DNA of 32,000 nt from Nitratidesulfovibrio vulgaris str. Hildenborough (lineage in GTDB: Bacteria > Desulfobacterota > Desulfovibrionia > Desulfovibrionales > Desulfovibrionaceae), in contig NC_002937.3 of assembly GCF_000195755.1 (NCBI RefSeq), positions 2,190,001-2,222,000 of the forward strand, given 5' to 3'. Both the position numbers and the translations under genes were made by a program. Numbering within the stretch: the stretch's first letter is position 1; every line of letters begins with the position of its first letter. The notes beneath the pieces are model-generated. The model saw nothing but the letters and a program-made list of their open reading frames with translations, was not told where the DNA came from and ran no database searches. Below are positions 5,286-28,889 of the stretch, one piece after another.

Positions 5286-7615
5286 CAGAAACTCTGCCCT
5301 ATGCTGAAGTAGAACTGGAGAGGCGCGTCATCTTCTCGCGGATTGACAGGTGTCGCCACATCGAACCGCAACGGGCCGATGGCCGTATAGTACCGCAGCC
5401 CGACACCGGCACCGAAGCGCATCCCGTCTCCGAAACGCGGCATGGACTCCTCGTAGACGTTGCCCCCATCGACGAACGTCACGAGACCGAGTGTCTCGGT
5501 GATGCGCGTTCGCGCCTCAAGCCCGACCTCGCCAAACGAACCGCCGCCAAGCGGCACGTCGCCATCGCGCGGGCCCAGCGACTGGTAGGCGTAGCCGCGT
5601 ACGGAACCGCCACCACCGGAATAGAACCTGAACGACGCCGGGATGTCGGCGGGCGACTCTCCATGCAACGCCCCCGCCGCCGCCCGCAGCGCCAGCACGG
5701 TACGCCCTCCCGGCAACGCCGTGTAGGCGCTGGCGTCCAGACGGCTTCGCACCATCGACCGCCACTCGTGATACACCCCGGTATACGGCGTCGTCGAAAG
5801 GGCCGCCCGGACACCCTCATGGGGGTCGAGAAGGTTGTCGGTACCGTCGTACCTGATGGTGAGCGGTACGCCCCACATCGAATAGGAACGCTCCGGTCCC
5901 TGATGGTCGTTGATGGAACCGCCCTCGGTCGTACCGCCCGCGCTGGCCCACAGGTGCCGTGAGATGCGACGCTCGACACTGGCGGACACCGCCCCCGCGC
6001 GCTGGTCGTAGGCGTCGGAGTTCTCGTTACGTGCCCACGCATCGGCGATGAAATCCTGGTCGGGGCGCAGCAGGAACGGCTTGCGGAACGAGGCCACGAC
6101 CTCCTGCCGCCGTTCCCACACGGGCAGTTCAAGGCGCAACCGCTCGCCTCCGCCCCACAGGTTGCGATGCTCCCAGAAGGCGAGCACACCCGGCCCCAAG
6201 GCCGAATCGTATCGTAGCCCACCACCGAAGCTGCGGGGCGGGCCGTAGGTCAGGCGCGCCATCACGGGCCGACATCCGGTGGCGTCGTCATGGTCGGCGG
6301 GAACGACCTCCATGCCGCTGAACAGCCCTGTGCCGCGCAACGACTCCCTGAAACGCTCGACAAGGCGCTCATCCCACGGCTGCCCCGGTCGCCATCCGAC
6401 GTACGTCGCCACATAGTCACGTGACACGTCGTCCGCGCCTTCCACATCCAGCCCGCCCATGAGCACATAGGGGCCGGGGTCGACGGTCACGGTGGCATGA
6501 AGGGTGTGCGCAGCGTGGTCGACCTCGAATCGGGTGCCCGTGACCACTGCGAAGGGATGCCCCCGTTCATGCAGAAAGACCGGAATCCGCGCCACGGCGT
6601 CGAGGATGTCGTCCGCCCGCGCGGGGGCGCCCCCGGCGACCCCGGCGTCGGACAGTGCACGAGGGAACCCTTCGGGAACAGGGGCGGAATCGGCATCGGC
6701 CGTAGGTACGGCGATTCCGGCGGGGCGACCTTTCATGCCACCCTCTTCCGGCGTTCCGTGTGCGAACGATGGAGAGGGAACATCATCGCCCGCCCCTGCG
6801 CTGTCTGCTGCCTGACCTGTCGCGCTTGTCTGGTCTGATGCACTTGTCTGGTCTGGCGCGTCAGCCGGCCCCACCATGCCTACCACGCCCGTCATGCCCG
6901 CCTTGTCGTCTGCCACCTCTGAATGTCCTGCCCCCGCACGGTAGACCACCCGCGAGTCCGCCACCGTGTACAGCGGCCCCGGAAAGAGCGTGAGCGTAAC
7001 CCGCAAGGGTGATGAGGCTGCATCAAGCCGCCCCTCTACGCGACCGGCGTAGAAGCCACGGGAATGCAGCACGTTGCGCGCTTCATCCTCGTCAGACCGA
7101 AGGCGGCGTTCGACACCGGTGACGCTGTCGGGGGCTTGGTCGGCGAGGCGTTCCAGAAGGCTCACCCCGCGTACGGCATCCAGCAGTGCGGAGCGTTCCT
7201 CGGTGGAGACTGACGACGCACCTGCATCGTCAGCGATGGAGAAGGTCACCTCGTAGGGCACGGGGCGCGCGTCATGCGAGGTGTCTTGCTTCGCAGTCGG
7301 CGCACCCGCGCAAAGGTCGGCGGGTACCTGCGGCGGTGTCAGGCCTTCGGGCAAGATGTGCTGCGTAAGCGATGTGGCGTTTCCGGATGCGGAAGGAAGC
7401 TGCATGTCCGTATGGTGCGCGGCGTTCGTGTCTGGGGCGTCACCCGGCCCCCGGTCATGGGCACTGCCTTGCCCTGCCTGCGGTGGTGGCACCACCGTAG
7501 GGAAAGGGTCACTTCCCCCACCGTCGGACACAGGGCGGGTGCGCCCGGAACAACCGGACAAGACCAGCACGAGGACAAGACACGAAAGAAGGGCACGCAT
7601 CTGCATGGTGCGCAC
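5285..7615 (-). CDS. tamA: Omp85-family outer-membrane protein, TamA-like (POTRA region + surface antigen D15 barrel), with lipoprotein-type signal peptide
   Basis: ORF 5285..7684. The C-terminus ...GPLRFDVATPVNPREDDAPLQFYFSIGQSF ends in an aromatic residue (beta-barrel signal). The Gly/aromatic-rich barrel region is typical of Omp85/TamA. The N-terminus is MQMRALLSCLVLVLVLSGCSG (lipobox LSGC). Start assigned to GTG 7615, with GGAGGG 7 nt upstream; ATG 7606 is an alternative. Translationally coupled to the tamB-like gene. Confidence 0.75.
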   Translation of the reverse strand: MRTMQMRALLSCLVLVLVLSGCSGRTRPVSDGGGSDPFPTVVPPPQAGQGSAHDRGPGDAPDTNAAHHTDMQLPSASGNATSLTQHILPEGLTPPQVPADLCAGAPTAKQDTSHDARPVPYEVTFSIADDAGASSVSTEERSALLDAVRGVSLLERLADQAPDSVTGVERRLRSDEDEARNVLHSRGFYAGRVEGRLDAASSPLRVTLTLFPGPLYTVADSRVVYRAGAGHSEVADDKAGMTGVVGMVGPADAPDQTSASDQTSATGQAADSAGAGDDVPSPSFAHGTPEEGGMKGRPAGIAVPTADADSAPVPEGFPRALSDAGVAGGAPARADDILDAVARIPVFLHERGHPFAVVTGTRFEVDHAAHTLHATVTVDPGPYVLMGGLDVEGADDVSRDYVATYVGWRPGQPWDERLVERFRESLRGTGLFSGMEVVPADHDDATGCRPVMARLTYGPPRSFGGGLRYDSALGPGVLAFWEHRNLWGGGERLRLELPVWERRQEVVASFRKPFLLRPDQDFIADAWARNENSDAYDQRAGAVSASVERRISRHLWASAGGTTEGGSINDHQGPERSYSMWGVPLTIRYDGTDNLLDPHEGVRAALSTTPYTGVYHEWRSMVRSRLDASAYTALPGGRTVLALRAAAGALHGESPADIPASFRFYSGGGGSVRGYAYQSLGPRDGDVPLGGGSFGEVGLEARTRITETLGLVTFVDGGNVYEESMPRFGDGMRFGAGVGLRYYTAIGPLRFDVATPVNPREDDAPLQFYFSIGQSF
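6825..6860. repeat. Tandem 18-bp direct repeat (cttgtctggtctg core twice) inside the tamA-like CDS, encoding DQTSA-SDQTSA
   Basis: The core cttgtctggtctg is seen at 6825-6837 and again at 6843-6855. It lies in a low-complexity Asp/Ala/Gly/Ser-rich segment of the protein. Confidence 0.7.
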
Positions 7616-7889
7616 GATAACGCCCTCCGCCCTCTTTTGCCAACTGACAGCTTGTGCGCTGGCAATCCACGCAGGAGGGGGCAAGACAGACGGGCGCGGC
7701 GGGACGCGGGCACTCTCCGTCCTATGGCTGACGCCTGAAAGGCATGGGAAGGCGTTCCCCCGTCAGACTTCGCGCATGTAACGATGCTGCGAGGCCTGAC
7801 GGGGGTTGTCGCCGCCATCAAGGGCCGGATGATGCGCTCTTCTTCGCCAGCCCCTGCGGAACAGGGCCAATGACGACGACGTCACGCGG

Positions 7890-8753
7890 TCAGACGAGTG
7901 CCAGCAACTGGTTCCAAACTCCGTTGAACCGTTGCCTCCACTCGCCGGAATCCTGTTCCGGCAATGTCCTGCCTTCCAGCTGTGCCTGTACGAACAAGGG
8001 AGAGAAGCCGAAGCGGCCCACCAGAGGCAGGTCGTGTGTGGTGCAATAGCCGATGATGCGCTCTGCCATGCCGGGGTGGATGTCGGCCTTGTTGAGCAGT
8101 ACCGCCATGCGCACATCGAAGTGACGGGCGAGGGCATGGACACGCTCAAGGTCGTGCAAGGCCGAAACGGTGGGTTCGGTGACAGCAAGCGCGGCATCCG
8201 CCCCGGCAAGCGAGGCGATGACCGGACAACCGACACCGGGCGAACCGTCGATGAGCACGACAGACGCGTCGCGTGCCTCGGCAAGTTCGCGGGCACGGGT
8301 GCGTACGGTGCTCACCAGCTTGCCCGAATTCTCTTCACCGATGCCGAGCGCGGCATGTACCATGGGCCCGAAGCGCGTGTCGGAGACGTACCATTCACCG
8401 CAACGCCTGTCGCTCAGGCGCGCAGCCCCTGTAGGACAGACATGGGCGCATACGCCGCAGCCTTCGCAATGCTCCGGTGCCACCTGTGGTGCATAGCCCT
8501 GCGGAATGGCCCCGTACCGACAATGTGTGGTGCACAGCCCGCATGAGATACAGGCTTCGGGTTCGATGGAGGCCACGACACCACTGATGAAATCATGGCG
8601 TTCGCGTATCTCCGGCGCAAGGACGAGATGAAGGTCGGCGGCGTCCACATCGCAGTCGGCGAGCACCATGTCCTTGCCGACGGCTGCAAGCCCCGCCGTC
8701 ACGCTGGTCTTGCCCGTGCCGCCCTTGCCGCTGATGACGACGAACTGTTTCAT
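7890..8753 (-). CDS. MinD/ParA-type P-loop ATPase with inserted 2x[4Fe-4S] ferredoxin motifs (orp1-operon type)
   Basis: ORF 287 aa. Deviant Walker A at the N-terminus (VISGKGGTGKTS). Two Cys clusters are present: CISCGLCTTHC and CEGCGVCAHVCP. The ATG overlaps the stop of the upstream paralog (ATGA at 8750-8753). Confidence 0.85.
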   Translation of the reverse strand: MKQFVVISGKGGTGKTSVTAGLAAVGKDMVLADCDVDAADLHLVLAPEIRERHDFISGVVASIEPEACISCGLCTTHCRYGAIPQGYAPQVAPEHCEGCGVCAHVCPTGAARLSDRRCGEWYVSDTRFGPMVHAALGIGEENSGKLVSTVRTRARELAEARDASVVLIDGSPGVGCPVIASLAGADAALAVTEPTVSALHDLERVHALARHFDVRMAVLLNKADIHPGMAERIIGYCTTHDLPLVGRFGFSPLFVQAQLEGRTLPEQDSGEWRQRFNGVWNQLLALV

Positions 8754-9655
8754 GACCTTATCCCCTTTTCCAGAAGCCTTGCGCCAAGGTCGCGGTAGGC
8801 GGCTTCAAGGTCGTGCGAGGCATCCAGCAACAAGCCGCCACCCGCATTACGCGAAGCAGCCTCGAGGCTGAACGGCAGTCTGCCCAGTACGTCGATGCCT
8901 TCTGAGGCGGCCCATGTTGCGACCCGGTCGTCACCCATGCCGAAACGGTTGATGACGATACCGTGCGGCAATCCGAGATGGCACACCAACCCGACAGCCA
9001 GTCTGAGGTCGTGCAGCCCGAAGGCGGTGGACTCGGCCACCAGCACCACGAAGTCCGCCTCGTCCAGCGCGTTGATGGTGGCACAGGCCGTTCCGGGCGG
9101 GCAGTCCCACAGGGTGACGCCATACCCTGCATGGCTGGTGGCATTGGCGTCTTCAGCTGTGCGTTTCACGGCCTTGATGAGCGGTGTCGCCATGGCCTCG
9201 CCCACGCGCAACACCCCGTCGCGGAACGCCATGTGGCAGGTTTCGCCATGGACATGGCAACTCGCCACGCCCTGCCGCACCTCACCCACCGGACGGCTTG
9301 CCGTGCCTACCACGCCTGCCGGGCAGACGAGTTCACAGAGTCCACACCCGTGGCAGAGTTCGGCGAAGACCAGCAGTTCACCACCCAGCATGGCCAGTGC
9401 CTTGAAACGGCACGCCTCGACACAGCGACGGCAACTCTCACCGAGGCACCTGTCGGGGTCGATGGCGGGCACGGGCACACCGCAGAGGCTACGAACCTGC
9501 CAACGCGCATCCACGAACAGATGCGCGTTGGGCTCCTCGACATCACAGTCCACCAGCGTCACGGGAAGGCCCTGCATCGCATACGATGCCGCAAGGTTCA
9601 CAGCCACGGTGGTCTTGCCCGTGCCGCCCTTGCCGCTGGCTACGGCAATATTCAT
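8750..9655 (-). CDS. MinD/ParA-type P-loop ATPase with inserted ferredoxin-like Cys clusters (paralog of 7890..8753)
   Basis: ORF 301 aa. Walker A is VASGKGGTGKTT. Cys motifs are CLGESCRRCVEAC and CHGCGLCELVCP. A Shine-Dalgarno sequence GGGAGAA lies upstream of ATG 9655. Confidence 0.85.
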   Translation of the reverse strand: MNIAVASGKGGTGKTTVAVNLAASYAMQGLPVTLVDCDVEEPNAHLFVDARWQVRSLCGVPVPAIDPDRCLGESCRRCVEACRFKALAMLGGELLVFAELCHGCGLCELVCPAGVVGTASRPVGEVRQGVASCHVHGETCHMAFRDGVLRVGEAMATPLIKAVKRTAEDANATSHAGYGVTLWDCPPGTACATINALDEADFVVLVAESTAFGLHDLRLAVGLVCHLGLPHGIVINRFGMGDDRVATWAASEGIDVLGRLPFSLEAASRNAGGGLLLDASHDLEAAYRDLGARLLEKGIRS

Positions 9656-9675
9656 GCGTTCTCCCTGTCCATGTG

Positions 9676-10188
9676 TCAGTTGCGTTCGGGGGCGGCGTCA
9701 GTCGGCGCATCGGCAAGGGCCGGAGAGTCTCCGGTGAAGCGTCCCCGCCGTCCGAACCCTTGCCCGTTGCCACGGCCATTGCCACGCCCCTGCCCAGTGG
9801 GCACACGACCGGCGCGCATACGGCCACAGCCCGTGCCACGTCCGAAGCCGCCACGGTCGCCCGCACCGGGAGACATCACGACATCGAGAGGTGCCCCGCG
9901 TTCAGACATGACGACGTTTTCTTCCGTCTGCGGTGTCAGTGTCGCCCCCTGTCCGGCAGCACGGCCCGCGCCTCTACCTGCACCGAATTGGGTACCTAAC
10001 TGGGCACCAAGCCCGACACCGCGGCAGAGACCACGACGACGACCGGCCCCTCTGCCAACACCTGTACCCGCACCGGCTTCGGCACCGGCAGGGCCTAGAC
10101 CTGTCTGCCCCGGACGCTGCCCCGGACGCTGCCCGACAGGGCATTCTTCATAGGTCCCGAACGGCCCGGTTCCATCTCCGTATGGCAT
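9676..10188 (-). CDS. DUF5320-like Gly/Arg-rich low-complexity protein (170 aa)
   Basis: This is the 3' part of track ORF 9676..11508. An in-frame ATG at 10188 is preceded by GAAGGAG. The N-terminus MPYGDGTGPFGTYEECPVG matches my memory of the DUF5320 signature (MPxxDGTGPxG). The rest is GRG/GQG/RPGQ repeats. It is the first gene of the minus-strand operon with the two ATPases. Confidence 0.7.
   Translation of the reverse strand: MPYGDGTGPFGTYEECPVGQRPGQRPGQTGLGPAGAEAGAGTGVGRGAGRRRGLCRGVGLGAQLGTQFGAGRGAGRAAGQGATLTPQTEENVVMSERGAPLDVVMSPGAGDRGGFGRGTGCGRMRAGRVPTGQGRGNGRGNGQGFGRRGRFTGDSPALADAPTDAAPERN
10105..10140. repeat. Tandem 12-nt repeat (ctgccccggacg x2 plus a degenerate third copy) inside the DUF5320-like CDS, encoding GQRPGQRPGQ
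   Basis: Read directly: ctgccccggacg at 10105-10116 and 10117-10128, then ctgcccgacagg. Confidence 0.75.
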
Positions 10189-10229
10189 ATGTGCTCCTTC
10201 CGCCGCGTATGCAGCGTTTGCCACGGACG

Positions 10230-10246
10230 AAGCACGTTCCGTTCCA
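10230..10246 (-). promoter_or_regulatory. Candidate sigma-54 (-24/-12) promoter for the DUF5320 / ATPase / ATPase operon
   Basis: The minus strand reads TGGAACggaacgTGCTT, with GG and GC at the canonical 12-nt register (consensus TGGCAC-N5-TTGCW). It lies about 40 nt upstream of ATG 10188. Confidence 0.6.
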
Positions 10247-10308
10247 CGACTCCAATACATCGTAATCAAACATCTTTTCCCAACACACATGCACGCCCAA
10301 GAAAAATA

Positions 10309-10325
10309 GGGCGCAAAATGCGCCC
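10309..10325. promoter_or_regulatory. Perfect palindrome GGGCGCA-AAA-TGCGCCC, candidate enhancer (UAS) site for the adjacent sigma-54 activator
   Basis: The 7+3+7 palindrome was read directly. It lies about 65-80 nt upstream of the minus-strand -24 element and about 32 nt upstream of the activator start codon. Related copies are at 11931 and 11962. Confidence 0.55.
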
Positions 10326-10356
10326 ACATGATAGAGACTTTCACACGGAGGATCAT

Positions 10357-11733
10357 ATGGCCCTGCCCCGAGACATCCCCTGCGAAACCATCATGGAAAG
10401 TGTCGCCGACGGCGTGTTCACGGTCGACCTCGACTGGCGCATCACCTCGTTCAACCGTGCCGCTGCCGCCATCACGGGAGTCCCCGCCGAAGAGGCACTG
10501 GGCCGACGCTGCCGAGACGTGTTCCACTCCAGCGTGTGCGACGGCGCATGTGTCCTGCGCGCCTGCATGGAACAGGACACCCCCTTCGGCAGCCGCACGG
10601 TGTTCATGGTGCGCACCGACGGGACGCGCGTTCCCGTCAGCATCAGTGCCGCACCGCTCAAAGACAGACGCGGCAGGCTCATTGGCGGGGTCGAGACGTT
10701 CCGCGACCTCACCGCGCTGCACCTCATGCGGCGTGAACTCGAAGGGCAACGCACCGTAGAGGACATCGTCACCCGCAGCCACGCGATGACGCGCCTTCTC
10801 GACCTCCTTCCGCAGATAGCCGCCAGCGACGCACCGGTGCTCATTCTCGGCGAATCCGGCACGGGCAAGGAACTCTTCGCCCGTGCGCTGCACAACCTCA
10901 GCCCCCGCGCCGCGAAGCCGTTCGTGGGCGTCAACTGCGGGGCGCTGCCTGAGAACCTGCTGGAATCGGAACTGTTCGGCTACAAGGCCGGGGCATTCAC
11001 TGACGCACGCCGAGACAAGCCGGGGCGCTTCCACACGGCGGGCGACGGCACCATCTTCCTCGACGAGATTGGCGACATGCCCCTGCCCTTGCAGGTGAAG
11101 CTGTTGCGGGTACTTCAGGAGAAGTGCTTCGAACCGCTGGGGGCGGTGAACGCGGAACCCGCGCTGGCGCGTGTCATTGCGGCCACCAACCGCGACCTTG
11201 AACGCATGACGGCCGAAGGCACGTTCCGCACCGACCTCTACTATCGGCTGAATGTGGTGCTGTTGCGTCTGCCCCCGCTGCGTGAACGCCCCGAAGACGT
11301 GCCCGCGCTCATCGACCACTGCGTCAGGCGGCGCAACCTGCTCACCGGCAAGGACATCGAAGGCGTCTCGGAGGATGTGCTGCACCTCATGCTGCGCTAC
11401 CCATTTCCGGGCAACGTGCGTGAACTCGACAACATCATCGAATATGCCTTCATCCTGTGCGGGCACGGGTTCATCCAGTTGGAACACCTGCCGGAGTACC
11501 TGCTGCACGCAGGGGGCATCGCCACCCCCTCCCTCGCGCCTTCACGTCCGCAGCCCCGCCCAGCCGGGGAGCCCGGAGACGACGGACAGCCCGCCACCCT
11601 TGAAGCCATCAAATACCGGGCGGTGGTCGACGCCCTTGCCCGCAACAATGGCAGGCGGATGGCGACCTGCCGCGAACTGGACATCTCCAAGGACACGCTG
11701 CGCCGCATCCTGCAACGTGGCGACACGAAATGA
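10357..11733 (+). CDS. Sigma-54-dependent transcriptional activator (PAS sensor + AAA+ + Fis-type HTH), no receiver domain
   Basis: In frame with track ORF 10189..11733. ATG 10357 is preceded by GGAGG. The N-terminal region is PAS-like ([28 protein letters not shown]). Walker A is GESGTGKE, the GAFTGA-type loop is GAFTDA, and the C-terminal HTH is [17 protein letters not shown]. Confidence 0.88.
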
Positions 11734-11930
11734 CGTAGCCGGTCGACGCCATTCCCGGCGCACCCTGCGCGCTAACGCCGCCTCTCAGTCCCGACAGACC
11801 TGTCTGCGCACCCCGTGTAGCCAGTCTGACCACACCTCGCCGCGCTGGCCTCCATGCCGGTCTCCAAGACCGTTATCCCCTGCCCGACGCCTTGGCGGCT
11901 ATCCCTGCCAGCCCGTCTCCCCCTGACATA

Positions 11931-11947
11931 GGGCGTGTTTTGCGCCC
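11931..11947. promoter_or_regulatory. UAS-like motif copy 2: GGGCGTGTTTTGCGCCC
   Basis: It has the same GGGCG-N7-CGCCC architecture and the same 3' flank (CACATG) as the 10309 site. It lies about 95-110 nt upstream of the plus-strand -24 element. Confidence 0.5.
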
Positions 11948-11961
11948 ACATGGCCACGACA

Positions 11962-11978
11962 AGGCGCATTTTACGCCC
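11962..11978. promoter_or_regulatory. UAS-like motif copy 3: AGGCGCATTTTACGCCC
   Basis: This is the third copy of the RGGCGY-N5-RCGCCC motif, starting 31 bp after copy 2 (about three helical turns). Confidence 0.45.
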
Positions 11979-12041
11979 ATCACAAGCTCGACGTTCCACG
12001 CAAAAAGCAACAACCAATCAGAATAAAAGCATTTCTTTTCA

Positions 12042-12058
12042 CGGCATCATTCCTGCTT
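12042..12058 (+). promoter_or_regulatory. Candidate sigma-54 (-24/-12) promoter for the NifX-like / NifX-like / Mrp operon
   Basis: CGGCATcattccTGCTT has GG and GC in the canonical register. It lies 35 nt upstream of ATG 12091. An unusually AT-rich tract (about 12004-12040) lies between it and the UAS copies. Confidence 0.6.
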
Positions 12059-12090
12059 CGGAGTGGTCGGTACCGGAGGTACGCCACGCC

Positions 12091-12501
12091 ATGATCGTCC
12101 ATGCCTGTCTCGCCAGTTACGAGGGCAGACTCGCCACACTGCTCGAAACAGCATCGGCACTGCATTTCGTCCGTCTTGACGACGCAGGGCCGCACACCCT
12201 CCATGTGCGCCCCTTCCGTCCGACGACCCCGATGCACCTCGCCGCGACGCTGCTAGAGGCCGACACACACCTGCTGGTGTGCGGCGGTGTCTGCGGACGT
12301 TGGCTGCATACCCTCGAAGCACAGGGCGTGGAGGTCATACCGTGGCTATCCGGCACCGAACAGGAAGTGCTGGCGGCACTTGCGAAGGGCACCGTCGACG
12401 AACTGGTCATGCCCGGCTGCATGAGACGCCTTGGAACAACAGGCGGCGTGTGCGCACGCGCCCGCTGCCGTACCAGAAGGGAGCGAAACGGATGCGAATA
12501 G
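12091..12501 (+). CDS. NifX/NifB-C-terminal (dinitrogenase FeMo-cofactor-binding, MTH1175-like) family protein with Cys-containing C-terminal tail
   Basis: In frame with track ORF 11935..12501. ATG 12091 has GGAGG 8 nt upstream. The sequence is MIVHACLASYEGRLATLLETASALHFVRLDD...LLVCGGVCGRWLHTLEAQGVEVIPW. This is a weaker family match than the next gene. Confidence 0.6.
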   Translation: MIVHACLASYEGRLATLLETASALHFVRLDDAGPHTLHVRPFRPTTPMHLAATLLEADTHLLVCGGVCGRWLHTLEAQGVEVIPWLSGTEQEVLAALAKGTVDELVMPGCMRRLGTTGGVCARARCRTRRERNGCE

Positions 12502-12851
12502 TCATCACCGCACAGGGGAATACGCTCGACAGCCCCCTCGACCCGCGCTTCGGACGCGCCCGGTCGTTCATCGTCTGCGACACCGAAACCGGGGCGACGC
12601 ATGCCGTCGACGTATCCGCCAACATGAACCTCGCACAGGGGGCGGGCATTCAGGCTGCCCAGATGGCTGCGGATGCCGGGGCGGAAGCCGTCATCACCGG
12701 GCATGTGGGTCCCAAGGCGTTCACGGCCCTCAACCGGGGGCACATCGCCGTGTACCTGTGCGACCTCGCCACCCCCCGCGAGGCACTTGCCGCCTTCATC
12801 GAAGGCAAACTCCGCCCTGCCGACACCGCCGACCGTGAAGGACACTGGTGA
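12492..12851 (+). CDS. orp: NifX/NafY/MTH1175-like small cofactor-binding protein; position and size fit the orange protein (ORP) of Desulfovibrio
   Basis: In frame with track ORF 12279..12851. ATG 12492 has AAGGGAG upstream and the gene overlaps the previous one by 10 nt. MRIVITAQGNTLDSPLDPRFGRARSFIVCDTETG...AVITGHVGPKAFTAL is a classic Nitro_FeMo-Co-type fold signature. The orp symbol rests on recalled synteny only. Confidence 0.7.
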   Translation: MRIVITAQGNTLDSPLDPRFGRARSFIVCDTETGATHAVDVSANMNLAQGAGIQAAQMAADAGAEAVITGHVGPKAFTALNRGHIAVYLCDLATPREALAAFIEGKLRPADTADREGHW

Positions 12852-14311
12852 GTACCGTGAACGGCGCGAACATACAGAGCGAAGAACAGCATACGGGTGG
12901 GTGTTCCGCCGGATGCTCTGGCGGAAGCACGGGTGGAAGCACGGACGGAAGCACTGGCGGAAACACGCAACAGGGGTGCTCGTGCGACACGCACGATGAG
13001 CAGCGCGACGGCAGCGTCGCCGCGCAGACCTTTGGCGAAGAGGGTCCCGTCAAGACACTCGGGCGCATCGGCTCGAAGCTTGTCGTCCTCAGTGGCAAAG
13101 GCGGCGTGGGCAAGAGCACCGTGGCGGTCAACCTTGCCGTGGGTCTGGCACGGGCAGGTCGCAAGGTCGGTCTGCTCGACGTCGACGTACACGGCCCCAG
13201 TGTGCCCCGGCTTCTGGGACTCACGGGAACCCGCCCCATGATCGGCGAAGACGCCATGTACCCCGTTGGCTGGCGCAACAACCTGCGCGTCATGTCGCTT
13301 GGCTTCTTCCTGCCCGACCCGGAACAGGCGGTCATCTGGCGCGGCCCGGTCAAGATGGGACTCATTCGCCATTTTCTCACCGAAGTGCGCTGGGGCGACC
13401 TCGACCATCTGGTGGTCGACTGCCCGCCCGGAACGGGTGACGAACCGCTTTCCGTCCTGCAACTGCTCGGAACCGATGCACAGGCCGTCATCGTCACCAC
13501 CCCGCAGGGCGTGGCCGTCGATGACGTGCGCCGTTCGGTGGGCTTCTGCCGTGAACTGGGCAACCCCATCCTCGGCATCGTCGAGAACATGGGCGGCTAC
13601 GTCTGCCCCAAATGCGGCGAACTCACACCGCTGTTCCCCGCCGGTGGCGGTGAGGCACTGGCAGCCGAACAGGGCGTGACCTTCCTCGGACGCATCCCGC
13701 TGCACCCCGACCTCACCAGCGCAGGTGACGCGGGCCGCAGCCTCTACGAGGCCGATGCCGCCCACCCCATCGTTCGCGCGCTGGCACCCATCGTCGAACG
13801 CGCCGCCGCCACCCTGCACGCAAGCGACATCAGGCACGAAAGCACGACCGGACCACAATCCGAAGCGGCCCCCGGAACGGGCAAGACCGCCGCGACCATG
13901 CCCACGGCCCCCACCCGCAACGAATCATGCGCCCCCGCAACGAACCATCCCGATACCAACGGAGACACGACCATGAAGATAGCCATTCCCGTCGCCGGTG
14001 ACGTACTCTGCCAGCATTTCGGCCATTGTGAACGCTTCGCGCTCATCGATGTCGACCCCGCCACCGGTTCCGTCACCGGGCGTAACGACGTCACCCCGCC
14101 CCCGCACGAACCGGGGCTGCTGCCCGTGTGGCTGTCTGAGAAGGGTGCCAACCTCGTCATCGCAGGCGGCATGGGTGCCCGTGCCCGCGCACTCCTCGAA
14201 GAACGTGGCGTGAAGGTGCTCATCGGCGCACCTGCCGCTGCCCCCGAAGCCATCGTCGCAGCACATATGGCCGGAACCCTCACCCTTGGTGCCAACACCT
14301 GCGACCATTGA
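12848..14311 (+). CDS. mrp: Mrp/NBP35/ApbC-type Fe-S cluster carrier ATPase fused to a C-terminal NifX/MTH1175-like domain
   Basis: Track ORF of 487 aa. GTG 12848 overlaps the TGA of the previous gene (GTGA). Walker A is LSGKGGVGKSTV, followed by CPPGTGDE and a CPKCG motif. From 13973 the frame reads MKIAIPVAGDVLCQHFGHCERFALIDV...LVIAGGMGARA, a NifX-like domain. The start codon is uncertain (GTG 12857 is also possible). Confidence 0.85.
   Translation: MSTVNGANIQSEEQHTGGCSAGCSGGSTGGSTDGSTGGNTQQGCSCDTHDEQRDGSVAAQTFGEEGPVKTLGRIGSKLVVLSGKGGVGKSTVAVNLAVGLARAGRKVGLLDVDVHGPSVPRLLGLTGTRPMIGEDAMYPVGWRNNLRVMSLGFFLPDPEQAVIWRGPVKMGLIRHFLTEVRWGDLDHLVVDCPPGTGDEPLSVLQLLGTDAQAVIVTTPQGVAVDDVRRSVGFCRELGNPILGIVENMGGYVCPKCGELTPLFPAGGGEALAAEQGVTFLGRIPLHPDLTSAGDAGRSLYEADAAHPIVRALAPIVERAAATLHASDIRHESTTGPQSEAAPGTGKTAATMPTAPTRNESCAPATNHPDTNGDTTMKIAIPVAGDVLCQHFGHCERFALIDVDPATGSVTGRNDVTPPPHEPGLLPVWLSEKGANLVIAGGMGARARALLEERGVKVLIGAPAAAPEAIVAAHMAGTLTLGANTCDH
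12920..12967. repeat. Four tandem 12-nt units (ggNggaagcacg-like) encoding (G-G-S-T)-type repeats in the Mrp N-terminus
   Basis: Read directly as ggcggaagcacg / ggtggaagcacg / gacggaagcact / ggcggaaacacg. The translation is GGSTGGSTDGSTGGNT, flanked by GGCSAGCSG and QQGCSCDTH. Confidence 0.8.
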
Positions 14312-14659: not shown

Positions 14660-16297
14660 CTATCTGGCGGGCAACATCCACGGGATGACATACGCCTGCA
14701 AGGTCACCAGCACGCAGATGACCAGCGTCATGGCGATGCTGTGCTTGAGCGCGAAGCGGAACAGGGCACCCTCCTGACCGACCGTATGTGTCGAGGCCGT
14801 GGCCACCGAGATGGACTGCGGCGAGATCATCTTGCCCGTGACGCCGCCCGTGGCGTTGGCTGCCACGGTGAGGTAGGGGTCGACCCCCACGGCACTGGCC
14901 GTAGCATGCTGCATGCTGCCGAAGAGGGCGTTCGACGACGTGTTCGAACCGGTGAGGAAGACGCCAAGCCAGCCCATGATGGGGGCGAAGAACGGGAAGA
15001 GTGCCCCCGTGTGCGTGAACGCGATGCCCAGCGTGGAGCTCATGCCCGAGTAGTTCATGAGCTGCGCCAGCCCGAGAATCATGACGATGGTCAGAATCGG
15101 GAAGCGCAACTGGTAGCAGGTACGGGCAAGGCAGCCGAAGGCGCGCCCATAGCCGTACCCCGGCATGACGGGTACGGAGAGAAGCCCCGCGAAGAGGATG
15201 GCTGTGCCACCCGCCGAGATGAGATTGAAGGTGAACTTGGCGGCGTAGGGCGCATCAGCCTTGACGATGGGCGCGGTCTTGGCGATGGCCGCGTGCAAGC
15301 CGGGCCACTCGAAGCTCATGATGAAGATGTTGTTGAGGAAGGTCTTCACGCTACCGAGACCCCAGAAGAACACGAAGACGGCGAGAATGGCATAGGGAGC
15401 CCACGCCCGCAGCACCTCGCCCGTCGAGTGCCGTGTCTCGCCGGTGGCGGCTTCGGGCTTCTCGTCGGCGAAGTGCCATGTGCGTGCGGGCTTCCAGAAG
15501 CGCAGAAGCACCAGCAGGCCCACGATGGTGACGATGGCGGCCATGACGTCCGGCAGGGTCGGCCCGTGCCAGTCGGCGAAGATGAACTGCGTACCGCTGA
15601 AGCACACGCTGGCGACGACGATGGCGGGCATGACCTCCATGGTGCGCTTGAAGCCGCACATGACCACCGTCATCCACAACGGAACGATGAGCGAGAACAC
15701 GGGCAACTGGCGGCCCACATACTGGCTCAGGGTGAGCGTATCGAGCCCGCTGACCTGACTGGCGACGATGACCGGAATACCCAGCGCACCGAATGCCACA
15801 GGCGCAGTGTTGGCGATGAGGCAGATGCCGCCCGCATAGACGGGACTGAAGCCCAGCCCCATGAGCATGGCCGCGGTGATGGCGACCGGGGTACCGAAGC
15901 CCGCAGTGCCTTCGAGGAAGGCACCGAAGGCGAAGGCGATGAAGAGCGCCTGCAACCTGCGGTCGTCGGTGAGGCGCGCCAGCGAACTCTTGATGATCTC
16001 GAACTCGCCCGACTCGACGGTCATGTTGTACAGCCACACCGCCGTCAGCACGATCCAGATGATGGGGAACAGGCCCATGGCCACACCGTAGAGCGTGGCG
16101 TTGACAGCCAGACCGGCGGGCATGCCCCACACGGCCACAGTGGCGGCAAAGGCCCCGGCGAGGCCGCATGCCGCCGCCACATGCCCCTTGGCACGCCTCA
16201 CGGCGAGCATGTAGAACAGGATGGCGAGGGGCAGCATCGCCACCATCGCCGACAGGGTTATGTTCGAGAAGGGATCGTACACCTGTGTCCAGAGCAT
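14660..16297 (-). CDS. lctP: L-lactate permease (LctP family)
   Basis: Track ORF 14660..16351. It is polytopic and hydrophobic, with an LctP-type motif TGSNTSSNALFG. Start moved to ATG 16297 (MLWTQVYDPFSN), which has GAGG 5 nt upstream. Confidence 0.88.
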   Translation of the reverse strand: MLWTQVYDPFSNITLSAMVAMLPLAILFYMLAVRRAKGHVAAACGLAGAFAATVAVWGMPAGLAVNATLYGVAMGLFPIIWIVLTAVWLYNMTVESGEFEIIKSSLARLTDDRRLQALFIAFAFGAFLEGTAGFGTPVAITAAMLMGLGFSPVYAGGICLIANTAPVAFGALGIPVIVASQVSGLDTLTLSQYVGRQLPVFSLIVPLWMTVVMCGFKRTMEVMPAIVVASVCFSGTQFIFADWHGPTLPDVMAAIVTIVGLLVLLRFWKPARTWHFADEKPEAATGETRHSTGEVLRAWAPYAILAVFVFFWGLGSVKTFLNNIFIMSFEWPGLHAAIAKTAPIVKADAPYAAKFTFNLISAGGTAILFAGLLSVPVMPGYGYGRAFGCLARTCYQLRFPILTIVMILGLAQLMNYSGMSSTLGIAFTHTGALFPFFAPIMGWLGVFLTGSNTSSNALFGSMQHATASAVGVDPYLTVAANATGGVTGKMISPQSISVATASTHTVGQEGALFRFALKHSIAMTLVICVLVTLQAYVIPWMLPAR

Positions 16298-16434
16298 AGA
16301 GGCCTCATGGGTTGCGGATGGATGATGACCGACGTGGAAAAAGCCGACCACGACGCCACGCGGTTGCGGAGTGTTGCCAATGTTGTTAGCGGAGGACGAC
16401 GAACGTTGTGAAATGAATTGTCGGCATAACCATC

Positions 16435-16453: not shown

Positions 16454-17356
16454 ATGAACCTGCGTGTGCTCAGATGCTTCGTCGAAGTCGTTCGCAACGG
16501 TGGTTTCTCAGCCGCAGCCCGCGTCGTCTGCGCCACACAGTCCACCGTCAGCAAGGCTGTGCGCAGTCTTGAAGACGAATATGGCACTCCGCTTCTCGAC
16601 CGCAGTAACGGTGTCGCCCTCACGGCGGCGGGTGAGACCGTGTACCGGCGCGCCCTCGCCATACTCGCCGAAAAAGAGGCCCTGGATGCCGAACTCGGGG
16701 CACAGCAGTCGCTACAGCACGGGACGCTGCGCTTCGGGGTGCCTCCCGTCGCGTGTGACAGGCTGTTCGCACGCCCCTTGAGCGCCTTTCATGCGCGCTA
16801 TCCGGGTATCCGCATGGAATTGCACGAAGCCGGATGCTACGCACTGGAAGAGATGGTGCTGCGCGGCGAACTTGAGATGGTTCTCGCCCTGCTGCCCGTG
16901 TCGGAGAGGTTCGAAACCGCGCCGCTGTGCGACGAACCCCTCATCGCCGTACTGCCTGAAGGCCACCCGCTGAGCGGTCGGCCCTGTATCCGGCTTGAAG
17001 ACCTCGATGGCAGTCCGTTCATCCAGTTCGAACAGGGGTTCGCCCTCAACCCGCGTATCCGGGACGCCTGCCTGCGTCGCGGCGTCAGCCTGCGCGAGAC
17101 CTTGTGCAGTTCACAGATGGCGTTCATAATCAGCCTTGTAGCCGCAGGGCTAGGGGTAGCGCTCATCCCGCGGCTGATGCTCGCGGAGGGGACGCCCGCC
17201 GGAGTGGTCACAGCGCATCTCGACGCGGACGACCTCCGGTGGCAGGGGGCGCTCGCATGGCGCAAGGGGCACGCGCTCTCGCCGCCTGCCAGGGCATGGC
17301 TGGACATCATGGCAGAGATGCCGCCCCGGCTTTCGCCCGACATGGGCCAGACGTGA
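16454..17356 (+). CDS. LysR-family transcriptional regulator
   Basis: Track ORF of 300 aa. The N-terminal wHTH is MNLRVLRCFVEVVRNGGFSAAARVVCATQSTVSKAVRSLEDEYGTPLLDR, followed by a LysR substrate-binding-type C-terminal region. It is divergent from lctP. Confidence 0.9.
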   Translation: MNLRVLRCFVEVVRNGGFSAAARVVCATQSTVSKAVRSLEDEYGTPLLDRSNGVALTAAGETVYRRALAILAEKEALDAELGAQQSLQHGTLRFGVPPVACDRLFARPLSAFHARYPGIRMELHEAGCYALEEMVLRGELEMVLALLPVSERFETAPLCDEPLIAVLPEGHPLSGRPCIRLEDLDGSPFIQFEQGFALNPRIRDACLRRGVSLRETLCSSQMAFIISLVAAGLGVALIPRLMLAEGTPAGVVTAHLDADDLRWQGALAWRKGHALSPPARAWLDIMAEMPPRLSPDMGQT

Positions 17357-17772: not shown

Positions 17773-18025
17773 CGCCTGACCACGCCAGCCCGCCGCAGTG
17801 AAAGGCCCGGTTCACCGAAGCCCCGGATGCGGGGGGATGCACGGCTGACACCCGGCGCGGCAGGGGGCGACCCTGCCTGCGGGCCTTTCCGCATGCCATG
17901 CCGTTTGAGCCCCTACCGGTGTACCAAACGTCGCACAAGGTACGACCGTCCCGCTGCCGTCAGCCTCTGCCCCCTGAAGCTGAAGCCCGGCATCCGGCAA
18001 ATTCGCAAAGGGTCTTCAGAGCACA

Positions 18026-18057
18026 AAAGGGCCGCCCGTTCACACGGGCGGCCCTTT
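18026..18057. terminator. Bidirectional rho-independent terminator candidate
   Basis: aaagggccgcccg-ttcaca-cgggcggcccttt is a perfect 13-bp stem with A/T tracts on both sides. It lies 27 nt downstream of the permease stop codon. Confidence 0.8.
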
Positions 18058-18083
18058 GCACATCTGACACGTCTTCGCGAATG

Positions 18084-19412: not shown

Positions 19413-20046
19413 CACGTCTGCTCCTTGATTGATTCGCGAAAGACGCCACACCCGTGCAGCGCCACCCTGACGTTCCAGCGGCGCGGGGTAGCCCTCCCCT
19501 GCCGCGGACACGTCCGCCTACACTGCATCTGCCATGATGACAAGACGCAAACGGGCCATGTCCCCGTGAACGGCTACGTCTTTGGCGTGCCCTTTCAGCA
19601 GGCCCGTCTGCACACCAGGGTCACAGGTATCGTGAAGCGCCCCGCCAGCCACATCATGCAGTCTACGGGCAGACACGCCGGAAAACCCGTGCTTCCGTTT
19701 CATCATGCCGAAAGCACCGGACATCAGGGGGGGCAAACAGGGTGCTCAACGTCACAACCGATTGCCCCAAGTACCCATCGATGCACCATTATTTTCATCC
19801 CGCGGCCCGCCCCACCACCGGTCACGGCCGACACGTGCCCCCCCGTCGTCGCAAGCCGTCACATTCCGTCTGATTTCCGGCTGTTGACCGCAAAGATGCA
19901 TGTTCTCATGGACGTCCATCGAAGCCGGGGCTAGGCTTTCTGAAGATGGCATGAGGGTCAAACCAGCTGCTATCCACCCTGAAACATTGTCTGCTCGCCC
20001 GTTTCGGTCTACACATGCCCCTCTATCCAGCCACAAGAGAGGAACG

Positions 20047-21807: not shown

Positions 21808-21823
21808 TGGCATGAGGGTTGCT
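21808..21823 (+). promoter_or_regulatory. Near-consensus sigma-54 promoter upstream of flp1
   Basis: TGGCATgagggTTGCT against the consensus TGGCAC-N5-TTGCW. It lies 61 nt upstream of ATG 21884. An A9 tract is at 21752-21760 and an AGCATGT direct repeat is at 21771 and 21786. Confidence 0.75.
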
Positions 21824-22342: not shown

Positions 22343-22494
22343 TAACGTCCAAAGCACTGGACACGACACGTAATCATGGATTGACCAGACGTTACGGCCT
22401 ACATTCGGACACTGGTGGAGAAGCATGTCATGCCAGCCACCTGCCCAGATGCCCCTGGAGACGACCGGAACACCGAAATGGAAAAGGAGACGAC

Positions 22495-23061: not shown

Positions 23062-23070
23062 GGGGTCTCC

Positions 23071-25340: not shown

Positions 25341-25349
25341 GAGAACGCC

Positions 25350-25754: not shown

Positions 25755-25765
25755 CGGAAGCCGCC

Positions 25766-26980: not shown

Positions 26981-26983
26981 GCC

Positions 26984-28810: not shown

Positions 28811-28889
28811 GGCCCGCCGCACACCACGCAGGCGCCACCACCGCGCCTGCGGCGGCACGAAGGATAGCAGGAAGGTCAAGGAGAAGACC

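Follow-up and report, generated by a model that had tools for sequence, protein, structure and literature searches.

The orp1 and orp2 operons of Desulfovibrio vulgaris Hildenborough (DvH) and their regulator OrpR have been described in a series of studies (Fievet 2011, 2014, 2021; Pardoux 2019; PMC3897727, PMC6345978, PMC8359166, PMC4641369). The operons are read from divergent sigma-54 promoters, ahead of each of which lies a 17-bp palindrome that OrpR binds (PMC3897727, PMC8359166), and the DNA between the OrpR box and the promoter is bent by IHF (PMC3897727). Redox potential is sensed through a [4Fe-4S] cluster in the PAS domain of OrpR, liganded by C52, C61 and C65: at low potential the [4Fe-4S]2+ form keeps the activator competent and both orp7-orp8-orp9 and orp5-orp4-orp3 are transcribed, and a rise of about 140 mV turns both operons off (PMC8359166). 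Orp3, Orp4, Orp5, Orp8 and Orp9 form one complex, and loss of OrpR gives misshapen cells (PMC3897727, PMC6345978, PMC8359166, PMC4641369). Orp9, or MrpORP, is found at one cell pole; it holds a bridging [4Fe-4S] cluster on a CXXC motif and in vitro passes Fe-S clusters on to the ferredoxin domains inserted in Orp3/Orp4, and its NifX-like domain carries a [3Fe-4S] cluster that is transferred inefficiently (PMC6345978). The orange protein (ORP) of D. gigas carries [S2MoS2CuS2MoS2]3- non-covalently (PMC6345978).

We analysed a 32-kb stretch of DNA (the window), in which positions 7890-14311 hold seven close-set genes, arranged as two divergent units with a PAS/sigma-54 activator gene between them. 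The orp2 unit, on the minus strand, opens with orp5 (DVU2105; 9676-10188; 170 aa; AAS96578.1), continues after a 20-nt gap with orp4 (DVU2104; 8750-9655; 301 aa; AAS96577.1) and closes with orp3 (DVU2103; 7890-8753; 287 aa; AAS96576.1), which overlaps orp4 by 4 nt. On the plus strand, the orp1 unit comprises orp7 (DVU2107; 12091-12501; 136 aa; WP_014524460.1), orp8 (DVU2108; 12492-12851; 119 aa; AAS96581.1) and orp9, or mrpORP (DVU2109; 12848-14311; 487 aa; AAS96582.1/Q72A88), with overlaps of 10 nt (orp7/orp8) and 4 nt (orp8/orp9). Between the units lies orpR (DVU2106; 10357-11733, plus strand; AAS96579.1); for orpR and orp7 we adopted the start codons of the deposited proteins (10357 and 12091). 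Each of the seven products matches its counterpart among AAS96576-AAS96582 (DVU2103-DVU2109) of D. vulgaris Hildenborough with 100% identity, strain RCH1 accessions are listed next to those of Hildenborough for six products (Orp5 excepted), and the RefSeq annotation already carries the names OrpR and MrpORP.

The regulatory DNA matches equally closely. Upstream of orp2, a sigma-54 -24/-12 promoter, TGGAACGGAACGTGCT (10231-10246, minus strand), occupies, with respect to the IHF and OrpR sites, the place expected from the -11/-43/-88 layout in PMC3897727. The IHF site, AATCAAACATCTT (10264-10276, plus), is exactly the one for which PMC3897727 gives mutation and gel-shift evidence, and the OrpR upstream activating sequence, GGGCGCATTTTGCGCCC (10309-10325, minus), is exactly the published 17-bp box, GGGCGYRTTTTGCGCCC. 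Upstream of orp1 we found a second exact copy of the box, GGGCGTGTTTTGCGCCC (11931-11947, plus), exact matches to the functional IHF2 site, CATCACAAGCTCG (11978-11990, plus), and to IHF1, AATCAGAATAAA (12016-12027, plus), reported as dispensable (both PMC3897727), and a GG-N10-GC sigma-54 -24/-12 promoter, cGGCATCATTCCTGCT (12042-12057, plus), which precedes the orp7 start codon by 34 nt. An imperfect box-like palindrome with two mismatches, AGGCGCATTTTACGCCC (11962-11978, plus), adjoins IHF2 and is arranged with the box at 11931-11947 as an inverted repeat; this second orp1 palindrome has no mention in the papers cited here by PMC number. Allowing up to two mismatches, three OrpR boxes were observed (two exact, one with two mismatches) against a mean of 0.05 in 100 shuffles.

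Given the identity of all seven products and the exact published OrpR box, IHF sites and promoters, this is therefore the orp1/orp2 type locus itself and not a new relative. An earlier note on this DNA had described seven genes in two divergent units with the activator between them, as the coordinates bear out, and had named the Hildenborough orp1/orp2 operons, correctly in view of the identical proteins and cis elements. Its further statements that both operons are co-regulated through sigma-54 and the activator lying between them, that there is a multiprotein complex and that there is a cell-morphology phenotype are all confirmed in the literature (PMC3897727, PMC6345978, PMC8359166, PMC4641369), whereas its view that the signal was still open is outdated, OrpR being known to read redox potential via its PAS [4Fe-4S] cluster (PMC8359166). 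The locus is already known: it has been published as a redox-switched, sigma-54-controlled cluster for Fe-S/metal-cluster-binding proteins, with its regulation understood in detail.

The products were compared with domain profiles. OrpR, a PAS-[4Fe-4S]/AAA+/HTH sigma-54 enhancer-binding protein, matches Pfam PAS, Sigma54_activat and HTH_8, as expected of the PAS-containing sigma-54 activator previously proposed, and has C52, D54, C61, C65 and a GAFTDA variant. Orp5, a small Gly/Arg-rich protein with three Cys, had been called DUF5320-like; this claim holds in weaker form, for its match to Pfam DUF5320 has E = 1.1, but its N-terminus, MPYGDGTGPFG, fits the invariant MPxGDGTGPxG of DUF5320-type neighbours in other orp loci. 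A custom HMM built from those neighbours scores Orp5 at 8.4 bits, all 1000 composition-preserving shuffles scoring -6.6 or less, and we regard the protein as only weakly DUF5320-like.

The proposal of two MinD-ferredoxin ATPases was upheld by a profile-HMM check, which placed CbiA/ParA and Fer4 domains in both Orp3, a MinD-type ATPase into which a 2x[4Fe-4S] ferredoxin domain is inserted, and Orp4, the second of the kind. Orp3 carries GKGGTGKT, CISCGLCTTHC and CEGCGVCAHVC motifs, and some of the more than 8000 Orp4 homologues are titled 'MinD superfamily P-loop ATPase, contains an inserted ferredoxin domain'. The AlphaFold model of Orp4 (pLDDT 90.9), whose closest PDB folds are archaeal MinD, confidently predicts a MinD fold with an insert. 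This confirmed fold is one reason to ask whether the ORP complex is mainly a spatial regulator of cell division, in which membrane-binding Orp3/Orp4 place the septum and the clusters are only redox sensors tying division to anaerobiosis. According to the orp authors, Orp3 and Orp4 have amphipathic helices at their C-termini, MrpORP is localised at the pole and inactivating OrpR causes morphological defects, and a sigma-54 regulome table classes the locus under 'cell division'. Loss of Orp proteins, in work by Fievet in 2011, reportedly also produced misshapen cells. Against a division role, the eight Cys of the ferredoxin insert are invariant in the family, the locus has no MinC/MinE-like partner, and the phenotype is tied to no direct divisome interaction in the papers cited here by PMC number; with the gene neighbourhoods described below, these points lead us to consider it rather unlikely. 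The orp authors themselves prefer a cell-division role, an opinion that counts against cluster handling.

Three products are NifX-like to differing degrees. Orp7, with a Cys-rich basic tail, scores 21.3 bits on Pfam Nitro_FeMo-Co, under the cut-off of 26.3; profile-profile alignment (hhalign) with the ORP family gives a probability of 98.2% (E 6e-14), and 25 of 26 members of its family, the window's Orp7 included, match Nitro_FeMo-Co at E<=0.01. By these sequence comparisons Orp7 is a divergent NifX-like protein; for this 136-aa product, too, the earlier assignment holds in weaker form. The 119-aa product, likewise proposed as an ORP-sized NifX-like protein, is indeed the orange protein ORP: Orp8 is a single NifX-like domain scoring 74 bits on Nitro_FeMo-Co, and its family profile finds D. 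gigas ORP (2WFB). Orp9 contains ParA (NUBPL type, 307 bits) and Nitro_FeMo-Co (65 bits) domains and reaches 514 bits on NCBIfam NF041136 MrpORP, above the equivalog cut-off of 450, in line with the suggested Mrp/NBP35-NifX fusion; its motifs are GKGGVGKS, CPKC, CQHFGHCE, TPPPHEPGLLP, a C-terminal CDH and an N-terminal CX3CX20CXC. A deviant Walker A motif, GKGGxGK[ST], is present in all three ATPases of the locus, and with the Pfam/hhalign results this agrees with the three NifX-type domains and three deviant-Walker-A ATPases counted before.

Such domains invite two further readings. The locus could be left over from, or accessory to, nitrogenase cofactor biosynthesis, pairing NifX/NafY/NifB-type carriers with a NifH-like ATPase, as Nitro_FeMo-Co domains in three products and the weak similarity of the P-loop region to the NifH family might suggest. 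We give this almost no credence: nif genes are absent from the 32-kb window, the ATPases are MinD/Mrp-type and not NifH (MinD comes top in the PDB by both sequence and fold), non-diazotrophic anaerobes and archaea widely carry the cluster, and control is by redox potential, not nitrogen. The nitrogenase-cofactor reading is effectively refuted.

Alternatively, the module could handle Mo (or W) and Cu in a sulfide-rich cytoplasm, sequestering or building thiomolybdate-copper clusters, whether for storage, for detoxification or to supply molybdo-/tungsto-enzymes. Orp8 is orthologous to the D. gigas protein that bears [S2MoS2CuS2MoS2]3- (2WFB; PMC6345978), and the Nitro_FeMo-Co family takes its name from FeMo-cofactor binding. 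However, the other NifX-like domain characterised, that of MrpORP, binds Fe-S and not Mo, the OrpR regulon answers redox potential and not metals, and no molybdate/tungstate transporter or molybdopterin-synthesis gene occurs in the 32-kb window, nor any such family among the 25 commonest families in 149 ORFs sampled from the flanks of other orp loci; we judge this reading quite improbable. The sole cofactor from a native ORP, the Mo-Cu-S cluster of D. gigas, has no obvious fit with Fe-S handling.

Conservation was examined in an 80-locus set covering Desulfobacterota, Chloroflexota, Planctomycetota, Bacillota, Thermoplasmatota and Altiarchaeota, from which we scored the 51 loci flanked on each side by 3 kb or more. 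An Orp3-like partner adjoins the Orp4 homologue in 51/51, at least one NifX-like gene is present in 48 and at least two in 44, and an Mrp gene in 26. The MinD-ferredoxin pair and the NifX-like proteins make up the conserved core, to which Mrp, OrpR/Orp7 and DUF5320 are lineage-dependent additions; co-conservation of all seven genes, as once proposed, is seen in a subset of Desulfobacterota-type genomes, but elsewhere only the pair and NifX-like proteins persist. Where an OrpR-like gene is present (15 loci), an Orp7-type gene accompanies it in 13, directly 3' of it where examined, and the top -24/-12-like site downstream of orpR has GG/GC spacing in 15/15, scores at least 10/12 in 14 and in 13 precedes the next orp gene by 13-72 nt, against a background of 0.04 such sites per kb per strand. 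C52/C61/C65 are kept in 19/20 orp-linked bEBPs. The association of the Orp3/Orp4 pair with NifX-like and Mrp genes across phyla speaks against a division role, as do the flanks of other orp loci, where NifU_N/IscU (6), radical SAM (5) and rhodanese (4) recur and no division family is among the 25 most frequent. FeoB (2) recurs in these flanks as well. This Fe-S flanking signal is thin, at 6 NifU matches in 149 sampled ORFs.

Taken together, we put at roughly 80% the probability that this is the DvH orp locus with its published regulation, in which an Orp4-Orp3 core and NifX-like proteins handle a metal-sulfur cluster. In favour we count, besides the identities, the conservation of the core and of its control, the Fe-S-related genes and missing Mo families in the sampled flanks of other orp loci, and the confident Orp4 model. 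The functional core would be the Orp4-Orp3 pair of MinD-fold, deviant-Walker-A ATPases with two [4Fe-4S] sites each, acting with one to three NifX-like cluster-binding proteins. Its most likely job would be ATP-dependent handling (loading, transfer or redox conditioning) of an Fe-S or heterometal-sulfur cluster for a client; if the module handles such clusters, the cell-shape defect would be a downstream effect. The assembly or trafficking line suggested in the earlier note is reasonable but unproven. Against cluster handling, neither a client protein nor a transferred cluster is known; against cluster transfer, the [3Fe-4S] of the MrpORP NifX-like domain moves inefficiently (PMC6345978).

Compared with the published DvH system, proteins (100%), gene order, OrpR boxes, IHF sites, sigma-54 promoters, OrpR Cys triad and MrpORP motifs are the same, with no difference among the features tested. 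The window holds this locus or its equivalent in a near-identical strain such as RCH1. The orp cluster of Oleidesulfovibrio (Desulfovibrio) alaskensis G20 has the same protein types, including a MrpORP fusion (Dde_3202) within the cluster (comparison via PMC6345978), and an Orp4 homologue 50% identical (P0188); its MrpORP is smaller than that of DvH (43 versus 50 kDa), without the DvH interdomain linker and with another N-terminal Cys motif (PMC6345978). Orp8 belongs to the same family as D. gigas ORP (2WFB), the top PDB match of its family profile (E 6.5e-37) and the only ORP-type protein with which the Mo-Cu-S cluster has been isolated, and the profile also matches MTH1175/TM1290-type single-domain NifX-like proteins (1RDU, 8e-28; 1EO1, 2e-26). 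Orp3/Orp4 have the fold and P-loop of MinD/ParA (SIMIBI, deviant Walker A), with archaeal MinD 1G3Q, 1HYQ and 1ION as top sequence and fold matches. Unlike MinD, they carry an inserted domain of about 100 residues including the 8-Cys ferredoxin motifs, an insert absent from all solved structures, score far under the equivalog cut-offs for MinD (54 against 202 bits), and are encoded in tandem pairs with NifX-like genes. In its P-loop domain Orp9 shares the deviant Walker A and CXXC with the ApbC, Nbp35-Cfd1 and Ind1 carriers; it scores 201 bits on the ApbC model, and in vitro it binds a [4Fe-4S] cluster and passes it on. To the Mrp/NBP35/ApbC plan Orp9 adds a NifX-like domain at the C-terminus, which has a [3Fe-4S] cluster of its own, as well as an N-terminal 4-Cys motif and polar localisation.

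Exact-sequence look-up of the seven predicted products returned D. vulgaris Hildenborough (DvH) proteins AAS96576-AAS96582 and their RefSeq WP_ entries. These accessions are consecutive and correspond to DVU2103-DVU2109, and the gene order orp3-orp4-orp5 / orpR / orp7-orp8-orp9 is that of DvH. As the earlier note had described, the seven genes are closely packed in two divergent units around an activator gene, spanning 7890-14311. The orp2 operon on the minus strand comprises orp3 (7890-8753, a 287-aa ATPase), orp4 (8750-9655, a 301-aa ATPase) and orp5 (9676-10188, a 170-aa Gly/Arg-rich protein), and the orp1 operon on the plus strand comprises orp7 (12091-12501, 136 aa), orp8 (12492-12851, 119 aa) and orp9, also called mrpORP (12848-14311, 487 aa). 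Between both units, on the plus strand, lies orpR (10357-11733), encoding a 458-aa activator; junctions between genes consist of one 20-nt gap and overlaps of 4, 10 and 4 nt. Because the proteins are identical, the cis elements match letter for letter, and the OrpR and MrpORP motifs agree, this is the type locus of the orp system and not a relative, and its identity and regulatory mechanism are essentially certain. The match to orp1/orp2 of DvH put forward in the earlier note is therefore an identity, with products identical to DVU2103-DVU2109 and the published cis elements exact. The result is also a rediscovery: the locus is already known and named, and it has been dissected experimentally in its model organism, with separate papers devoted to the locus itself and to its regulator, promoters and one ATPase. 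Two genes are named in RefSeq, as 'sigma 54-interacting transcriptional regulator OrpR' and 'iron-sulfur cluster carrier protein MrpORP'.

OrpR has the PAS/AAA+/HTH_8 architecture, with the PAS cysteines and D/E54, of OrpR-type enhancer-binding proteins: it matches the Pfam PAS, Sigma54_activat and HTH_8 models, and C52, D54, C61, C65 and the unusual GAFTDA loop are all present. The C52/C61/C65 triad is kept in 19 of 20 orp-linked enhancer-binding proteins of other genomes, and GAFTDA in most. In published work, the PAS domain holds a redox-sensitive [4Fe-4S]2+ cluster requiring C52/C61/C65, the sensed variable is redox potential and not O2 as such, a rise in potential of ~140 mV silences both operons, and OrpR lacking the PAS domain or its cysteines gives constitutive expression with DNA binding unaffected (PMC8359166). 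The signal, which the earlier note had left open, has thus been settled since 2021. Both operons need OrpR for transcription, both promoters need IHF, and the OrpR regulon determined by ChIP-seq consists of these two operons only (PMC3897727, PMC8359166); expression of orpR itself is independent of IHF (PMC3897727).

The cis elements follow the same plan at each operon. The 17-bp OrpR box GGGCGYRTTTTGCGCCC (motif from PMC8359166) occurs upstream of each operon as exact copies at 10309-10325 and 11931-11947; allowing up to 2 mismatches, three matches were observed (two exact, one with 2), against a shuffle mean of 0.05. Between OrpR box and promoter lie the IHF sites at 10264-10276, 11978-11990 and 12016-12027, exact to the published sequences (PMC3897727). 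The -24/-12 promoters of orp2 (TGGAACGGAACGTGCT, 10231-10246, minus strand) and orp1 (cGGCATCATTCCTGCT, 12042-12057, plus strand) both have the GG/GC elements at 10-nt spacing. The loose sigma-54 pattern TGG-N9-TGCW is unenriched in the window (16 versus 10.7 expected) and misses the orp1 promoter, which starts with CGG; counting the pattern alone is no proof of sigma-54 control. Since the pattern is not rare, support for the promoters comes from their position and from conservation elsewhere: we examined 15 OrpR-bearing loci, and in every one the best sigma-54-type site on the downstream side of orpR shows GG/GC spacing. Fourteen of these sites agree with 10 or more of the 12 consensus positions, and 13 are placed 13-72 nt ahead of the next orp gene; the background density is 0.04 such sites per kb on each strand. 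Judging from these sites and from the kept Cys triad, loci with OrpR also retain the control logic. Co-regulation by sigma-54 and the intervening activator, as originally proposed, is upheld by the published OrpR requirement at both operons together with the exact boxes and promoters found here.

Scans for sigma-70 promoters and terminators gave nothing above chance, and the call of an OrpR box as a terminator hairpin was dismissed as a mis-call. A second, imperfect OrpR-box-like palindrome (AGGCGCATTTTACGCCC, 11962-11978, plus strand, 2 mismatches) has its centre 31 bp downstream of that of the exact orp1 box and has one base in common with the functional IHF2 site (11978-11990); published descriptions give one OrpR box per promoter (PMC3897727, PMC8359166). 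Such a tandem site could help in assembly of the activator hexamer, or in interplay with IHF binding. The orp2 box, for its part, ends 31 nt upstream of the orpR start codon (10357), so it must overlap or abut the putative orpR sigma-70 promoter, a position that hints at orpR autoregulation.

The genes surrounding the cluster were also catalogued. Immediately beside orp3 are a TamB-like gene that continues past the window start (3-5327, minus strand; at least 1775 aa; Pfam TamB, E 1.5e-49) and, preceding it, a gene for a 799-aa Omp85-family protein (5285-7684, minus strand); they resemble a TAM pair for outer-membrane translocation and assembly. On the downstream side, the orp1 operon is flanked by an L-lactate permease gene (14660-16351, minus strand, 561 bits) and a divergent LysR-type regulator gene (16454-17356, plus strand), which belong to ordinary energy metabolism and show no evident connection with orp. 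Further along is a second sigma-54 activator gene, of response-regulator type (19900-21435, plus strand), which by position is DVU2114, described as controlling pili (PMC4641369). Directly upstream, overlapping it by 35 nt, is a putative 678-aa ORF (17898-19934, plus strand) that has no Pfam match even at E 1e-3, though it occupies the slot where a sensor kinase would be expected; on the other strand, a 475-aa ORF (18084-19511) overlaps it, leaving the coding strand ambiguous. The activator gene is followed by a textbook sigma-54 promoter (TGGCATGAGGGTTGCT, 21808-21823, plus strand) and then by a Flp/Tad pilus gene set (22381-30838, plus strand) encoding an A24 prepilin peptidase, RcpC/CpaB, a secretin, a CpaE-like REC+MinD ATPase, a T2SSE ATPase and two T2SSF proteins.

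The three proposed NifX-like domains did not all stand on the same footing. Orp8 and the C-terminal domain of Orp9 score 74.3 and 65.1 bits on Nitro_FeMo-Co (Pfam PF02579), above its gathering threshold of 26.3 bits, but Orp7 alone reaches 21.3 bits and falls under this cut-off. We therefore aligned Orp7 with 25 positional or sequence relatives from other genomes, a family with the signature SPVFD, LICGAIS, MPGC and a basic Cys-rich tail. Profile comparison with the Orp8 family by hhalign gave 98.2% probability (E 6e-14), and PF02579 is matched at E<=0.01 by 25 of the 26 sequences, the window's Orp7 included. On profile evidence, Orp7 is a divergent NifX-like protein, its homology being well supported, as distinct from formal Pfam membership of the Orp7 sequence.

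Orp9 joins a NUBPL/Mrp-type ParA domain (307 bits) to Nitro_FeMo-Co and scores 514 bits on the NCBIfam MrpORP equivalog NF041136 (cut-off 450), covering model positions 2-365 of 365, which substantiates the predicted Mrp/NBP35-NifX fusion. Motif residues map to the deviant Walker A (83), CXXC (253), CXHFGHCE (388), TPPPHXPGXXP (416) and CDH (485), and the CX3CX20CXC, CPKC, CQHFGHCE, TPPPHEPGLLP and terminal CDH motifs agree with the published description (PMC6345978). MrpORP carries a bridging [4Fe-4S] cluster on CXXC and a [3Fe-4S] cluster in the NifX-like domain, and apo-aconitase and the apo Orp3-Orp4-Orp8 subcomplex both accept Fe-S clusters from it in vitro (PMC6345978).

Orp5 has no significant Pfam or NCBIfam match, DUF5320 (PF17253) reaching only 10.9 bits (E=1.1) against a threshold of 27. 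Low sequence complexity limited the database homology search to two near-identical proteins without a Pfam domain; as direct searches were unproductive, we approached its family assignment via positional neighbours in other genomes. Small proteins beginning MPxxDGTGP adjoin the ATPase pair in other orp loci; when 42 such neighbours and Orp5 itself were scanned, 34 of the 43 proved to be bona fide DUF5320. Orp5 has the invariant N-terminal residues and a matching Gly/Arg-rich composition, carries an insertion of ~32 residues and has no C-terminal DUF5320 coiled coil; its score on a custom HMM of DUF5320-type neighbours is 8.4 bits, whereas none of 1000 composition-preserving shuffles exceeds -6.6. 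The label 'DUF5320-like' given in the earlier note thus appears fair from the N-terminal motif and the custom HMM, but DUF5320 membership proper, at 10.9 bits in Pfam, is unsupported. A second kind of small protein was seen in L028, L036, L049, L051, L054, L058, L063 and L070, our handles for orp loci of other genomes (e.g. L036:5035-5265). It has an MPRGDGTGP N-terminus, a Gly/Arg stretch and a C-terminal CxCPxCG...CPxCG four-Cys module, and a few such proteins match zinc-ribbon Pfam models; DvH Orp5 lacks both this module and the DUF5320 coiled coil.

Conservation of the seven genes was assessed in at least 80 loci pulled with a profile of Orp4 homologues from one-genome-per-species contigs, mostly distant MAGs with few close Desulfovibrio relatives, and every ORF in them was scored with the seven DvH proteins. 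Among the matches listed, sources were Desulfobacterota and MAGs labelled Chloroflexota, Planctomycetota, Bacillota, Acidobacteriota, NC10, Thermoplasmatota and Altiarchaeota, and 51 loci had at least 3 kb on both sides. In this set, still among the matches listed, an Orp3-like partner directly follows Orp4 in 51/51 loci, 48/51 have one or more NifX-like genes, and 44/51 have two or more. Frequencies for the remaining genes, among the same listed matches, are lower: an Mrp domain in 26/51 (NifX-fused in 6), an Orp7-like gene in 21/51, a DUF5320-motif protein in 18/51 and an OrpR-like activator in 15/51, with Orp7-like genes in 13 of these 15 OrpR loci; seven loci are complete among the matches listed, save for a recognisable DUF5320 gene in five of them. 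In the OrpR loci examined, the Orp7-like gene comes directly after orpR. Of the co-conservation anticipated for all seven genes, then, what holds across the 51 listed loci is a core of the MinD-ferredoxin pair plus NifX-like proteins, but OrpR with Orp7, Mrp and DUF5320 are lineage-specific additions. The orp genes are co-directional in other genomes among the matches listed, which makes the divergent two-operon arrangement look like a peculiarity of the Desulfovibrio lineage.

Families recurring among 149 ORFs beside the orp core in other loci were DUF134 (7), response-regulator receiver (6), NifU_N/IscU (6), radical SAM (5), rhodanese (4) and FeoB (2). The 25 most frequent families in these 149 ORFs include neither a molybdate transporter nor a molybdopterin-synthesis family. 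The flanks lean, if thinly, towards iron-sulfur handling over molybdenum metabolism, and this lean agrees with MrpORP biochemistry. The D. gigas orange protein, whose orthologue in DvH is Orp8, holds a Mo-Cu-S cluster non-covalently (PMC6345978). We consider it quite improbable that the ORP complex serves Mo/Cu homeostasis. A connection to nitrogenase is effectively excluded: as the first inspection had indicated, there are no nif genes in the window, and the ATPases are of MinD/Mrp type, not NifH type. Our preferred reading, with a probability of roughly 0.45, is that the ORP complex handles Fe-S or heterometal-sulfur clusters for a client in an ATP-dependent manner, the cell-shape defect being secondary. 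Separately, DUF134 proteins, which are small and predicted to bind DNA, recur with NifU_N/IscU, rhodanese and radical-SAM genes by the Orp4-Orp3-NifX core in genomes without OrpR, where DUF134 may act as regulator of the orp core.

The assignment of Orp3 and Orp4 as MinD-ferredoxin ATPases was corroborated by their Pfam CbiA/ParA P-loops with Fer4 domains, their 8-Cys motifs and the MinD fold of Orp4. Each carries two CxxCxxCxxxC-type four-Cys ferredoxin motifs inserted after switch I, corresponding in the Orp4-family alignment to invariant C70, C75, C78, C82, C101, C104, C107 and C111, and the deviant Walker A GKGGxGK[ST] is present in all three ATPases (Orp3, Orp4 and Orp9). Some homologues of Orp4 are already named as MinD-type proteins with an inserted ferredoxin domain (COG1149-type). 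The high-confidence structure model of Orp4 (pLDDT 90.9) is closest to archaeal MinD, Soj, FleN, ATPase-type HypB and Cfd1, with NifH-type folds lower down, and the ferredoxin insert is found in none of these closest solved folds. Two further invariant cysteines lie outside the 8-Cys insert, C37 and C191 in Orp4 (C34 and C176 in Orp3): the first in a DCD motif in switch I, the second at Walker B Asp+7 (D-x-PPG-xx-C), a spacing that we take to be that of the NifH cluster ligand C132. By analogy, the Walker B+7 Cys might provide a nucleotide-responsive (nucleotide-gated) inter-subunit metal site at the dimer interface.

These ATPases bear on a further possibility, that the ORP complex primarily places the division site. 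MrpORP is positioned at one cell pole (PMC6345978), and published work describes a cell-morphology phenotype for the orp system and an ORP complex made up of Orp3, Orp4, Orp5, Orp8 and Orp9 (PMC6345978, PMC8359166). Orp3 and Orp4 have the MinD fold but are not MinD proper: on TIGR01968/TIGR01969, whose true-MinD cut-offs are ~202-213 bits, Orp3 scores 54 and 47 and Orp4 49 and 40, far below the equivalog level. We consider a primary role in division-site placement unlikely.

Among the papers searched, none later than 2021 deals with Orp function. The ORP complex stands as one of few anaerobe-specific, widely conserved metalloprotein assemblies without an assigned function, in a little-explored corner of how strict anaerobes make Fe-S clusters. 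The comparative split between universal core and lineage-specific additions points functional work to its target. Extending the preferred reading of cluster handling, we tentatively suggest, as possible rather than probable, that the core is a distinct, ancient, ATP-driven system to build, repair or insert Fe-S or heterometal-sulfur clusters in strict anaerobes. This core, found in more than ten phyla including archaea, comprises tandem 2x[4Fe-4S]-insert MinD-fold ATPases with one to three NifX-like proteins, and a DUF5320 protein and an Mrp carrier frequently go with it. The Desulfovibrio cell-shape phenotype would be a consequence of failed maturation of a client. If true, this would add a further cluster-handling route beside ISC, SUF and NIF.
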